A DNA stretch of 40,471 nucleotides from a virus. Lineage: Duplodnaviria > Heunggongvirae > Uroviricota > Caudoviricetes. The first letter of the stretch is position 1. Every line of letters starts with the position of its first letter. A model generated the notes under the pieces. That model had not been told where the DNA came from and did no database searches. It saw only the letters and a program-made list of their open reading frames with translations. The translations under genes and the position numbers were made by a program. The stretch is from IMG/VR virus record IMGVR_UViG_2565956717_000010, positions 1 through 40,471 of that record. One strand, given 5' to 3'. Positions 6,610-34,804 of the stretch are shown in pieces.

Positions 6610-6624
6610 TTACCTTTCAGGTAA
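6610..6624. promoter_or_regulatory. Operator-like palindrome TTACC-N5-GGTAA (site 1)
   Basis: Perfect inverted repeat TTACCtttcaGGTAA flanked A..T; in divergent region between tailspike start and the LexA-box gene. Confidence 0.45.
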
Positions 6625-6663
6625 TTTGCAAAACGTGCTGGATAGCAAACAAATTATTTGCTA

Positions 6664-6679
6664 CTGTATAAATATACAG
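6664..6679. promoter_or_regulatory. LexA (SOS) box
   Basis: CTGTATAAATATACAG is a perfect CTGT-N8-ACAG palindrome with AT-rich centre, 22 bp upstream of ATG 6701; overlaps -10-like TATAAA. Only such box found in the window. Confidence 0.7.
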
Positions 6680-6700
6680 TTATTGCATGGAGAAGATAAG

Positions 6701-6958
6701 ATGCAGCAGTATCACTATCCACTGGAAGACGGATTTACCGAAAGGATTCACACGCCGGGAGGCGTCAGGTCACTGGTGGAGGGATCGCACTTGATGAAAT
6801 TACTCCGGGATCTCGATAAGGATGGATTTAATGTCGATGGCCCACTTGCCGAACTGACTGCACTGATTAACTACGTCACCAGCTCACAGATGTCTATGCA
6901 GGATCTGCAAACACATCTCGACTATTGTGCCGAACAATTACGAAAGCAAACCAGATAA
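6701..6958 (+). CDS. Small protein homologous to the C-terminal domain of the adjacent antirepressor (SOS-controlled antirepressor candidate)
   Basis: 85 aa from ATG 6701 with GGAG RBS; C-terminal ~60 aa align with the C-terminus of the 7276-7926 product (GVRSLVEGSHLMKLLRDL...DLQTHLDY vs GVLGLTENSLLMNLLNQL...DIQTHAEY). Confidence 0.6.
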   Translation: MQQYHYPLEDGFTERIHTPGGVRSLVEGSHLMKLLRDLDKDGFNVDGPLAELTALINYVTSSQMSMQDLQTHLDYCAEQLRKQTR

Positions 6959-6989
6959 GGTTTGCAATTACCAAGTGGAGTGCTTATAT

Positions 6990-7004
6990 TTACCTTTGCG
7001 GTAA
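6990..7004. promoter_or_regulatory. Operator-like palindrome TTACC-N5-GGTAA (site 2)
   Basis: TTACCtttgcGGTAA, 32 bp after the stop of the small antirepressor-like gene. Confidence 0.4.
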
Positions 7005-7095
7005 ATTTACATCGCACTCCTCTTGTGCCATAGTAATCGGGCACTGGCAAAATCCAGTGCCGGGATTGGTCTCCCGGATTACTAAGTGGCGCATA

Positions 7096-7117
7096 CCACG
7101 CCAGACGTGGTTTTTTT
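7096..7117 (+). terminator. Intrinsic terminator after small antirepressor-like gene
   Basis: Stem CCACG/CGTGG with 5-nt loop followed by T7. Confidence 0.5.
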
Positions 7118-7275
7118 ATGCGTATAGCACAGTCATGCCAGAATTATGGTGGGCTGAATGGGGGTCCGAAAGGACGCCGGTACCACTTAGGCCGGTAAGA
7201 CCAACTCCGTTCAGTTCACCACCATCTGATTGGTCTCAGCGGTGGTGATGTAATTCGCTAAGTGGAGACGCCATA

Positions 7276-7926
7276 ATGAACGCTCAACTCATCCCCGTAT
7301 TCAACGGCACTATATCCAACGAAACCGCTCTTCTCGTTAATGCCCGTGATTTACACACTTTCCTCGATGTGGGTAAGCGATTTGCTTCGTGGATTGTCGA
7401 ACGAATTTCTGAATATGGTTTCGTTGAAAATCAAGACTTTATGATTATTTCCCAAGTTCGGGAAAAAATAGGCAGAGGCCGTCCTGCAAAAGACTACCAC
7501 CTCACCCTCGATACAGCCAAAGAGCTGGCGATGGTCGAGCGTAACGAAAAAGGTCGTCAGGTACGACGCTACTTCATTGAATGCGAGAAACGTTTAAGAC
7601 AACAAGAAACAAAAGTGGAGAAGGTCTTGTCAGGCTTCATGCCCGCCATTATGGAGGCGATCAAGCTGGAAGACAAAAAAGAATACAGTGCCCCACTGAA
7701 GCCCGGCTACCGTAGCCTGATTCATTCGCCGTCTGGTGTTCTCGGCCTGACGGAGAACTCACTGCTGATGAATCTGCTGAACCAGTTACAGGACGACGGG
7801 CACGACGTATCGGGCGCGGCGGCGGAGCTGACCACCATGTTCTGCTACATCGTCGGTGTGAGCAAATGCCTGCGTGATATCCAGACCCACGCGGAGTACA
7901 TCAACGACAAGGCAGGGTTCTTCTGA
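7276..7926 (+). CDS. Antirepressor, AntA-type N-terminal domain
   Basis: N-terminal LIPVFNGT...LVNARDLHTFLDVGKRFASWIVERISEYGFVENQDF matches the AntA/AntB antirepressor pattern as I remember it; GGAG RBS; C-terminal domain shared with 6701-6958. Confidence 0.7.
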   Translation: MNAQLIPVFNGTISNETALLVNARDLHTFLDVGKRFASWIVERISEYGFVENQDFMIISQVREKIGRGRPAKDYHLTLDTAKELAMVERNEKGRQVRRYFIECEKRLRQQETKVEKVLSGFMPAIMEAIKLEDKKEYSAPLKPGYRSLIHSPSGVLGLTENSLLMNLLNQLQDDGHDVSGAAAELTTMFCYIVGVSKCLRDIQTHAEYINDKAGFF

Positions 7927-7992
7927 CGGGCGGCGGCACAGGGATGTGCTTCTGACATAATCATTTGCGGTGTGATGTAGATTCACGTAAGA

Positions 7993-8007
7993 TTACCTTA
8001 AAGGTAA
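7993..8007. promoter_or_regulatory. Operator-like palindrome TTACC-N5-GGTAA (site 3)
   Basis: TTACCttaaaGGTAA, 26 bp upstream of ATG 8034; overlaps a second palindrome GTAAACC-atg-GGTTTAC (8004-8020). Confidence 0.45.
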
Positions 8008-8033
8008 ACCATGGGTTTACATGAGGAGGAGAT

Positions 8034-8243
8034 ATGGGATTTTGGTTCGCTCGTACAAAAACGAGGGATAATGCACCCAGCCCTCAGGCAAAAAATGCAG
8101 AAGTTCCGGCGTCAGCGCAGGTTAACAAGCGTGGTGGAGTATATATCTCATCACAGCAAATTTCTGAGCTTCCTGAGGTTAAGGAGATGCGTCGTCTCGC
8201 TGCTGCAATTGTTAAACAGGATCTTGCCACTGTAAGGAAATAG
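8034..8243 (+). CDS. Hypothetical small protein, first gene of cargo operon
   Basis: 69 aa; GAGGAGGAG RBS immediately upstream; stop overlaps the next start (TAGTG). A competing 74-aa ORF in another frame (8011-8235) lacks an RBS. Confidence 0.4.
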   Translation: MGFWFARTKTRDNAPSPQAKNAEVPASAQVNKRGGVYISSQQISELPEVKEMRRLAAAIVKQDLATVRK

Positions 8244-33700: not shown

Positions 33701-33931
33701 TCATGAGTAGAAGAAGTATGCCAGTTCTGCTTTTGAGCGCAGCCATTGTCTTGTTTTACAGGCTTTAAAAAGCCCATTCATCAATACTTTACCTGGCATT
33801 TTGCGCTTACCTGTTAAGTGAGTCTGGATATAGTGACTCGTCGTTCCGGCTTCCTGTGCGAAGGCTTCACGCTCATCCGGAGTAAGTGCAAGCCAGTGCT
33901 TTTTGAAATCGAAATGTCCGTTATCGCTCAT
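33701..33931 (-). CDS. Cro-like small regulator (first gene of rightward-type operon)
   Basis: 76 aa, divergent from the repressor candidate; promoter spacer contains palindrome site 8a between TTGTTA (-35-like) and TATTAT (-10-like). Confidence 0.45.
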   Translation of the reverse strand: MSDNGHFDFKKHWLALTPDEREAFAQEAGTTSHYIQTHLTGKRKMPGKVLMNGLFKACKTRQWLRSKAELAYFFYS

Positions 33932-33967
33932 AGCTATTGCCTGATATTTATTTCAGATAATAAATAT

Positions 33968-33982
33968 TCACCCATAAGGTAA
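33968..33982. promoter_or_regulatory. Operator-like palindrome, imperfect (TCACC-N5-GGTAA; site 8a)
   Basis: In divergent immunity region; overlaps predicted Cro-like promoter spacer. Confidence 0.45.
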
Positions 33983-33998
33983 CAAAAATCAAGGATAG

Positions 33999-34013
33999 TT
34001 ACCTATGGGGTGC
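33999..34013. promoter_or_regulatory. Operator-like palindrome, imperfect (TTACC-N5-GGTGC; site 8b)
   Basis: Middle of three sites in the divergent immunity region. Confidence 0.4.
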
Positions 34014-34015
34014 AT

Positions 34016-34030
34016 TTACCTGTTGGGTAA
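34016..34030. promoter_or_regulatory. Operator-like palindrome TTACC-N5-GGTAA (site 8c)
   Basis: TTACCtgttgGGTAA, 56 bp upstream of repressor-candidate ATG. Confidence 0.45.
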
Positions 34031-34085
34031 TATTGCTTTAAATTGAATCATCTACTGATTCATATACGAGGCGATTTTCCAGAAA

Positions 34086-34670
34086 ATGAAAAGTATCCAG
34101 GACGTCCGCAGGCAAAATCTCAACGACTTGATCGACCGTGAATTCAATGGTGTTCAGACGCGGATGGCAGAAAAACTTGGAACTCAGGCAAATCTGGTAA
34201 ACCGCTGGGCTCTTGGCAAGAAGGTTATCGGCGACCAGGTTGCGCGAAAAATTGAAGCTGCCGCCAATAAACCCCGTAACTGGCTTGATATCGATCGCTC
34301 GCTTTCTCAGGAAGGTTTTCAGCCTGTCGGCCCAAGCGACATTGGCCAGCTGGCGGCTCACAACCTGGAACGCTGGATGAGCGAAAGCCGCGACCTTTCA
34401 ACACAGGGAAAACTTCACCGCGCATCCGGCGTCGCCCAGGTGACAATCAGCCGCCTGTTAAACAATGAGGTCAGCGTTTCCATTTCCACCCTGGAGAATG
34501 TTGCATCCGCATTCGGGCGTCACGGCTATGAATTACTGATTCACCCGCACGACCCTGCGACCATCAACTATGACCGCTCGCGCTACGCATTGTTACCCGA
34601 AACCGAGAAAGCAAAGATCGAAAGTTACATTGAATTTGTCATCAACCAGAACGAAAAAAACAAACAATAA
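34086..34670 (+). CDS. Double-HTH XRE-type regulator, candidate lysogeny repressor without autocleavage domain
   Basis: Two HTH-like segments (GVQTRMAEKLGTQANLVNRWALG and GVAQVTISRLLNNEVSVSISTLENVASAF); no S24 peptidase motifs; divergent from Cro-like gene across three palindromes; own terminator. Confidence 0.55.
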   Translation: MKSIQDVRRQNLNDLIDREFNGVQTRMAEKLGTQANLVNRWALGKKVIGDQVARKIEAAANKPRNWLDIDRSLSQEGFQPVGPSDIGQLAAHNLERWMSESRDLSTQGKLHRASGVAQVTISRLLNNEVSVSISTLENVASAFGRHGYELLIHPHDPATINYDRSRYALLPETEKAKIESYIEFVINQNEKNKQ

Positions 34671-34691
34671 AATCATATTTTTCAGTAAGTA

Positions 34692-34716
34692 AGCCGCCTT
34701 CTGGCGGCTTTTTTAT
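34692..34716 (+). terminator. Intrinsic terminator after repressor candidate
   Basis: Stem AGCCGCC/GGCGGCT with TTCT loop then T6. Confidence 0.6.
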
Positions 34717-34727
34717 TGCCTATACTA

Positions 34728-34742
34728 TTACCTAATGGGTAA
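34728..34742. promoter_or_regulatory. Operator-like palindrome TTACC-N5-GGTAA (site 10)
   Basis: TTACCtaatgGGTAA flanked A..T, immediately after the terminator. Confidence 0.45.
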
Positions 34743-34789
34743 TTTTTTTAACTCATATCTATTGACATCAAACCAAATACGCATAATTA

Positions 34790-34804
34790 TTACCTAAACG
34801 GTAA
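34790..34804. promoter_or_regulatory. Operator-like palindrome TTACC-N5-GGTAA (site 11)
   Basis: TTACCtaaacGGTAA; TTGACA at 34762-34767 lies 22 bp upstream; 20 bp before a small ORF start. Confidence 0.45.

Follow-up and report, generated by a model that had tools for sequence, protein, structure and literature searches.

Dispersed palindromes in an integrated Uetakevirus prophage are probable operators of the prophage repressor Rep

The window considered here (IMG/VR record IMGVR_UViG_2565956717_000010, positions 1 to 40,471, analysed at its full length of 40,471 bp) is a Uetakevirus prophage integrated in Escherichia coli, a podovirus of the epsilon15/phiV10-like type, and it carries fourteen dispersed copies of a 17 bp palindrome, ATTACC-N5-GGTAAT. 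We put the probability that these palindromes are operators of the prophage repressor Rep, the 194-residue product of the plus-strand gene at 34086..34670, at nearly nine in ten. A preliminary description of this DNA, made from its letters, had proposed an operator role, and this is backed by a match to the sites annotated in epsilon15, by overlap of the sites with predicted core promoters (PL, PR and four further units) and by the adjacent repressor gene. The family is the already recognised repressor-operator family of epsilon15/phiV10/SPC32H-type phages, and its recovery here is a rediscovery and not a new system.

Abundance and consensus of the palindrome

Ten sites match TTACC-N5-GGTAA exactly (at 6610, 6990, 7993, 25746, 28562, 31623, 31685, 34016, 34728 and 34790, numbered by the first base of the TTACC half-site) where 0.01 are expected, and none of 100 dinucleotide shuffles of the window reached that number. 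With up to one mismatch there are 12 sites against 0.76 expected, the extra pair being 28544 and 33968, and again none of the 100 shuffles matched the count. The last two sites, 33631 and 33999, have two mismatches apiece, both in one half-site (GGTGC). Matches with up to two mismatches are common by chance (39 in the window versus 11.9 expected) and these two are not significant alone, but we accept them because their position and synteny, with counterparts in relatives, back both. The 17 bp palindrome is thereby confirmed as real and far above chance. All fourteen copies in the preliminary description, ten of them perfect, were found at the same coordinates, and the enrichment over shuffled sequence that it proposed as a check is borne out; its count of four copies with a single half-site mismatch stands in that the mismatches are confined to one half-site, and needs correction for 33631 and 33999.

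All fourteen 17-mers lie wholly within non-coding DNA, which makes up 7.5% of the window by the gene map made in this analysis. Extended outwards, the consensus reads ATTACC-NNWNN-GGTAAT; pooling four genomes gives 39 perfect sites, and every one of them has A or T at its centre.

Conservation of the sites and prior annotation

Six Uetakevirus genomes were compared (the window, phiV10, epsilon15, SPC32H, Tyrion and BUCT711), with hosts in four genera (E. coli, Salmonella, Enterobacter and Klebsiella). In none of the six is any other hyphenated palindrome repeated as often as TTACC-N5-GGTAA, which has 8–11 perfect copies in each. The syntenic sites are a pair ahead of terS, one at gp3/portal, one in the tailspike/ant divergent region, the OL pair to the left of rep, the OR triplet in the rep–cro gap, a pair separating the replication genes from the next operon, one before int and, usually, one before the lysis cassette. 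A site downstream of ant and a weak site after cro are also syntenic, but both are absent in epsilon15 and SPC32H. Centre-to-centre spacings across the six genomes fall into three classes, 62 bp (11 pairs, with one more at 63 bp), 17/18 bp (11 pairs) and 30/31 bp (six pairs). Alignment of orthologous intergenic regions, another check that had been suggested, shows the operators conserved while much of the flanking sequence has diverged.

The epsilon15 GenBank record (AY150271.2) contains seven protein_bind features labelled ‘repressor; lysogeny’ (12–27, 2931–2947, 19895–19911, 32479–32494, 32554–32570, 32616–32632 and 35906–35922), and all seven coincide with matches to the motif. They lie before terS, gp3/portal and tailspike, to the left of rep, and before the RuvC gene, and their counterparts in the window are 28562, 25746, 6610, 34728/34790 and 31685. 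The wide dispersal of the sites, which the preliminary description called unusual, is thus a property conserved across the genus and already annotated in epsilon15. The phiV10 GenBank record lists terminators only and no operators, and the ZX5 paper mentions operators only generically (PMC9782041). Literature text searches for the motif or for Uetakevirus operators returned nothing beyond the GenBank features and secondary accounts. The 2007 epsilon15 genome paper of Kropinski reportedly gives a consensus like ATTACCWDWWNGGTAAT.

Sites and promoters

The position of the sites relative to promoter hexamers is precise at several transcription units. One example is PL, a predicted promoter with a −35 TTGACA at 34762–34767, a 17 nt spacer and a −10 AATTAT at 34785–34790, where the −10 ends at position 2 of the OL-proximal operator (34789..34805); the centre of the OL-distal operator (34727..34743) is 62 bp upstream of that of the proximal one, and the pair thus flanks TTGACA as had been described. 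A second example is a minus-strand middle promoter in the gap between the P-like replication gene and a DUF1064/resolvase-like gene (31272–31619), with TTGATT at 31665–31660, a 17 nt spacer and TTTAAT at 31642–31637. Its −10 also ends at operator position 2, in a downstream operator (31622..31638) that stops 2 nt before the DUF1064 gene ATG, and its upstream operator (31684..31700) comes directly after the terminator of the P-like replication gene. At both PL and the middle promoter the second operator is 62 bp upstream and stops 18 nt short of the −35 in all six genomes.

The same register recurs at the isrK/C4-antirepressor operon, where the promoter TTGCAA (6962–6967)-17-TATATT (6985–6990) ends at position 2 of the operator at 6989..7005, and at the cargo slot, where a weak promoter, TTGCGG-17-TAAGAT, ends at position 2 of the operator (7992..8008) preceding the cargo genes at 8034–9109. 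Phage phiv142-3 has an identical operator before a different cargo gene, with TTGCAG-17-TACTAT in equal register.

Three sites (within 33967–34031) lie inside the 154 bp divergent region between rep and the cro-like gene, in agreement with the preliminary description. OR1 (TTCACCCATAAGGTAAC, one mismatch; 33967..33983) overlaps the −35 and spacer of PR (TTGTTA-17-TATTAT, 33985–33957, minus strand), and its counterparts are 30/31 bp from OR2 in all six genomes. OR2 (GTTACCTATGGGGTGCA, 33998..34014) has its two mismatches in one half-site, abuts OR3 at a spacing of 17 bp and is perfect at that spacing in epsilon15, SPC32H and BUCT711. OR3 (TTTACCTGTTGGGTAAT, 34015..34031) is an exact match, is the operator closest to rep and probably overlaps the rep promoter. 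The weak operator ATTACCTTTGAGGTGCG (two mismatches; 33630..33646) is situated between the cro terminator and the gp42-like gene; its counterparts in phiV10, Tyrion and BUCT711 have one mismatch, and the synteny comparison of the six genomes found none in epsilon15 or SPC32H.

Ahead of terS, the gap from terminator to ATG is taken up by two abutting operators. The first (28561..28577) follows an intrinsic terminator (28613–28596, minus strand), and the second (ATAACC...GGTAAT, 28543..28559; the epsilon15 equivalent is 12–27) is 18 bp from the first and ends 1 nt before the terS ATG. The operator at 25745..25761 (equivalent to epsilon15 2931–2947) stands between gp3/portal on the minus strand and a tRNA-Arg unit on the plus strand, about 80 bp upstream of the presumed gp3 start site. 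It contains TACCTT, the −10-like hexamer of a plus-strand promoter with TTGACA at 25724–25729 and a spacing of N17, and the −35 TTGAC of this promoter is kept at a fixed spacing in the six genomes. A further operator (6609..6625, equivalent to epsilon15 19895–19911) is in the tailspike/ant divergent region. Closeness to start codons, which had been described as frequent, is seen at four genes, with distances of 1 nt for terS, 2 nt for the DUF1064 gene, 18 nt for the first gene of the PL unit and 25 nt for the cargo gene, and does not extend to gp3 (89 nt) and tailspike (103 nt).

Rep and its likely mode of action

The rep gene is located between OR and OL. The protein has an N-terminal helix-turn-helix (HTH), a middle HTH_3-type domain (Pfam HTH_3 on residues 106–147) and, at the C-terminus, a region for tetramerisation and Ant binding. 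Its sequence is that of phiV10 gp40 and ZX5 ORF21 (100% identity). It matches SPC32H Rep (PDB 5D50) over residues 1–190 (phmmer E 4e-42) and is 42–43% identical overall to the epsilon15 gp38/SPC32H proteins (42% to epsilon15 gp38). An N-terminal stretch, ANLVNRW..G.K.IG...AR.IE, is invariant in five genomes despite identity down to 43%, which fits the invariant half-site. Across every homologue of Rep from the phage collection with a full-length alignment, neither the half-site nor the N-terminal recognition region varies. A Pfam scan of Rep returned only HTH families (HTH_3, HTH_26 and YdaS-like) and no Peptidase_S24, the LexA-type autocleavage domain.

Two sets of published experiments with relatives bear on this assignment. 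Overexpression of ORF21 in ZX5 cut holin and endolysin transcripts by 99.97–99.99% and abolished free phage (PMC9782041). According to later accounts of SPC32H, Rep consists of N-terminal DNA-binding, middle dimerisation and C-terminal tetramerisation domains and is a tetramer on palindromic DNA, from which the tetrameric antirepressor Ant removes it (PMC9638917; PMC9986798).

By analogy, each 17 bp site would take a pair of Rep N-terminal HTH domains, and most units that are lytic or conditionally expressed would have their core promoters occupied by Rep in the lysogen. The bound operator would cover about −8 to +9 at four of them (PL, the middle promoter, the isrK/C4-antirepressor operon and the cargo slot); at PR it would cover the −35 and spacer, and at the tRNA-Arg promoter the −10 would be buried inside it. 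At PL and the middle promoter the second operator is exactly 62 bp upstream, some six turns of the helix, so that a single tetramer, or a pair of Rep units in contact, could hold both sites and clamp the promoter. Induction would proceed without repressor autocleavage, the SOS response inactivating LexA, Ant being released and Rep then disassembled, and the switch would be strengthened by a second antirepressor operon, itself repressed by Rep and controlled by C4 RNA.

Direct silencing by Rep is well supported at the early, middle, antirepressor, cargo and tRNA units. The broader proposal in the preliminary description, that one repressor silences every unit directly, holds for these and fails to reach gp3/portal and tailspike, where the operator is upstream of the likely core promoter, and the lysis cassette, which has no operator. 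Several points weigh against assigning the whole family to simple repression by Rep. First, a search to two mismatches gave no operator ahead of the lysis cassette in the window. Second, the promoter search revealed no evident sigma-70 consensus promoter at terS, gp3 or tailspike. Third, simple occlusion fails at gp3 and tailspike because the operator is ~65–80 bp upstream of the start that we infer there (see below). Fourth, the Cro-like protein has an invariant HTH and could, like lambda Cro, share the sites of the repressor. Finally, physical binding of Rep in this phage is deduced from sequence and homology. Separately, the sigma-70 candidates that can be drawn at terS, gp3 and tailspike are weak (with GGTAAT or GGTAAC as the −10), and we do not rely on them.

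A second conserved element at the late units

A second element, CNTWTRTGGTT, is present in four copies in the window (3150, 6580, 25704 and 31653) versus 0.42 expected, all four intergenic and on the sense strand, and it is likewise over-represented in the other five Uetakevirus genomes, where some copies form the full palindrome AACCATATATGGTT. All four window copies are on the minus strand. Two have the sequence CATATATGGTT, one upstream of gp3/portal (25694..25704), within a 30 nt block that is near-identical in six genomes, and one upstream of the lysis cassette (3140..3150), there without an operator in the window. The others are CATATGTGGTT upstream of the tailspike gene (6570..6580) and CTTATGTGGTT within the spacer of the middle promoter (31643..31653).

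At gp3 and tailspike there is a single operator, with the second element 40 nt (gp3) or 28 nt (tailspike) downstream of it. At gp3, tailspike and the lysis cassette a −10-like hexamer (TAATAA, TAATAG or TATAAT/TATGAT) comes 7 nt after the element. If these hexamers mark late promoters, the operator centres at gp3 and tailspike would be ~65–80 bp upstream of the late starts. We also considered TGGTT-N5-GGTAAT as a degenerate operator, 62 bp from the true operator at gp3 and 50 bp at tailspike. This was dropped, and TAATAA/TAATAG are read as −10-like hexamers at a fixed 7 nt, as at the lysis promoters. The second element was compared by eye with integration host factor sites, sigma-54 promoters, extended −10 elements and DnaA boxes, none of which fits consistently.

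Control of the late units (gp3/portal and tailspike) probably involves a further factor. A candidate late regulator is a 112-residue protein encoded on the minus strand at 28849–29187, the last gene before terS and in the position of lambda Q. Its sole annotation is phrog_536 (‘transcriptional regulator’). It is 77–98% identical across the aligned homologues from Enterobacteriaceae prophages, with invariant cysteines C40, C79, C82, C91 and C93, and by eye its N-terminus looks like a ribbon-helix-helix (RHH). Searches found no Pfam or PDB sequence match to it, and its AlphaFold model is of low confidence (mean predicted local distance difference test score 65), with no Foldseek match to the PDB with E below 6. 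The possibility of a second regulator, raised in the preliminary description, thus has a conserved, RHH-like and cysteine-rich protein to attach to.

A more elaborate scheme can be drawn, which we regard as doubtful. The 62 bp pairs would each be clamped by one Rep tetramer into a promoter microloop, and the late units (gp3/portal, tailspike and lysis) would have non-canonical promoters (CNTWTRTGGTT, 7 nt, TAnnAn) read by a phage-encoded factor, such as the 112-residue or the Cro-like candidate, which Rep would gate from 65–80 bp upstream. If true, this would be a temperate-phage late switch using neither antitermination nor a known late-activator family.

Alternative explanations

The alternative that survives best, although we consider it improbable, has all the sites, or only some of them (for example the upstream copies at about −62 and those at the late units), mainly serving a second regulator, either the Cro-like or the RHH-like 112-residue protein, acting as a lytic-phase repressor or a class I-like activator. 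The Cro-like protein (76 residues; 33701..33931, minus strand, divergent from rep; phrog_35 ‘transcriptional repressor’, 5.6e-13) has a segment, AGTTSHYIQ.HLT, that is invariant across five genomes, and its HTH is as invariant across the genus as the half-site. The other candidate, a conserved putative DNA-binding protein, is encoded directly before terS. The upstream operators are ~62 bp from the downstream operator or start at the PL, middle and ant promoters and about 67–79 bp upstream of the presumed starts at the late units, which are typical distances for class I activators. However, the epsilon15 annotation gives the sites to the repressor, overexpression of Rep alone silences lytic genes (PMC9782041), the motif on core promoters is in the position of a repressor site, and a second regulator would more plausibly target CNTWTRTGGTT. 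Lambda Cro and CI bind common operators, and a Cro-like protein sharing these sites would not contradict their being Rep operators.

It is less probable still that the palindromes work as RNA, forming 5′-proximal hairpins that affect translation, stability or termination. Several operators are transcribed (from about +1 to +9 onward), they abut the starts of terS, the DUF1064 gene and the cargo genes, and their right arms (AGGT, GGTGG) resemble a Shine-Dalgarno sequence. However, the predicted hairpins are weak (−1.1 to −4.5 kcal/mol), none is followed by a T-run, and no Rfam family was found at the sites. The half-site sequence itself is conserved, beyond complementarity, and the natural variants TCACC, TAACC, GGTGC and GGTAT all break pairing and are uncompensated; the upstream copies at PL and the middle promoter are outside the transcript. 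The RNA-level role suggested in the preliminary description is therefore not upheld.

It is scarcely credible that chance or base composition produced the family, or that it is a mobile repeat without regulatory role, since this view has only the A+T-rich character of intergenic DNA in its favour and is opposed by the shuffles, by synteny and fixed spacings in six genomes from four host genera, and by the precise register with promoter hexamers.

Antirepressors, cargo genes and a tRNA unit

The small antirepressor gene ant (6701..6958, plus strand) encodes a product 88% identical to SPC32H Ant, and a LexA box, CTGTATAAATATACAG (6664–6679), is present in its promoter and conserved in the alignment of all six genomes. 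Downstream, between the operator at 6990 and an AntA-type antirepressor gene (7276–7926, plus strand; Pfam AntA 7.3e-28, phrog_377 and phrog_450), are an isrK-like Hfq-binding small RNA (7041–7117, plus strand; Rfam 67.7 bits) and a P1/P7-type C4 antisense RNA (7142–7226, plus strand; Rfam 61.2 bits), both gathering-level matches. From these matches, isrK/C4/AntA (7041–7926) is a predicted immI-like antirepressor module, additional to the LexA-controlled small Ant. The C-terminal part of the AntA-type protein (residues 133–214) matches phrog_450, as does the small Ant, and the larger protein thus looks like a fusion of an AntA N-domain to an Ant-like Rep-binding domain.

The cargo block (8034–10302) contains five open reading frames (ORFs), none with a Pfam or NCBIfam match, and an operator precedes its first unit, which suggests that the lysogen keeps the cargo genes silent and that their expression is confined to lytic growth. 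The tRNA-Arg(UCU) gene (26083..26159, plus strand) is antisense to the structural genes, in a unit that runs from the operator-overlapped promoter to a strong terminator at 26203–26238; SPC32H has a tRNA-Arg at the equivalent place and in equal orientation.

Chromosomal setting and replication gene

PAS61, phiv142-3, ZX5, TL-2011b and phiV10 are 97–98% identical to the window across large parts. The host genes yfgH and yfgI occupy bases 1–1071, and the prophage is at the E. coli guaA/yfgI locus. After the host DNA, at the left end (window 1–1265), is an attachment-like core, aatcatttccactcaat (~1162–1178), that resembles the published core attgagtgggaatgatt (PMC9782041), and the integrase gene is at the far end of the window. 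At least 80% of bases 1–3400, comprising the host flank and lysis cassette, are present in ~454 of 5,426 complete E. coli genomes.

The DnaT-like replication gene holds tandem direct repeats (32898–33034; 24 bp × 2.6 copies, 100% identity) flanked by 12 bp and 18 bp repeats. The repeats at 32898–33034 are probably origin iterons.

Significance

Sequence reading alone has here recovered a genuine, genus-wide repressor regulon. The practical value is in annotation, as the left end of a prophage of this kind adjoins yfgH/yfgI in about 450 of 5,426 complete E. coli genomes. From the operator map, three accessory units are predicted to be silent in the lysogen, namely the isrK/C4-antirepressor operon, the cargo slot and the tRNA-Arg unit, and this matters for phiV10-based reporter phages and engineering. 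The fixed 62 bp operator pairs and the second motif are the only leads beyond the known regulon. Beyond the activation of the late units and the partner of the second element, no new biological question is raised.

Comparison with known systems

The resemblance to lambda noted in the preliminary description is one of architecture. The sites are 17 bp long, a tripartite OR is situated between divergent repressor and cro-like genes, the repressor gene is between OR and OL, and imperfect sites may grade affinity. However, nine of the fourteen window sites are outside OL and OR, the OR spacings are 17 and 30/31 bp, Rep has no Peptidase_S24 match and relatives are induced through a LexA-controlled antirepressor. 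The earlier observation that there is no N- or Q-like antiterminator agrees with our finding no such family among the early and middle ORFs scanned, some small ORFs being outside that scan.

Phage P1 has the C1 repressor with dispersed, asymmetric operators of ~17 bp, and its immI region consists of C4 RNA, icd and ant. The prophage in the window shares the arrangement of one repressor with many dispersed operators, including one at a C4 RNA-antirepressor operon (6990). It differs in that its sites are palindromic, Rep is XRE/HTH_3-type and unrelated to C1, and the phage integrates. In mycobacteriophage L5 the gp71 stoperators are 13 bp, asymmetric and orientation-dependent. The likeness is in having many repressor sites in the short gaps between genes of long arrays that run in one direction, and the terS pair, which comes straight after a terminator, could work as a roadblock; the window sites are by contrast palindromic and most coincide with promoters. 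The family stands outside the lambda, P1 and L5 systems because it differs from them in the type of repressor, the symmetry of the sites and the route of induction.

The closest likeness is to the Uetakevirus phages epsilon15 and SPC32H/SPN1S, with the same 17 bp motif, site positions, 62 bp OL and middle pairs and OR triplet, a homologous repressor between OR and OL and, by sequence, an Ant and LexA-box module. The differences are that the window has extra operators at the isrK/C4-AntA operon and the cargo slot and lacks the lysis-cassette operator, and that the int-proximal site is outside the window. Every defining feature compared is shared, and judged by these homologies the family belongs to the epsilon15/SPC32H Rep-operator system.

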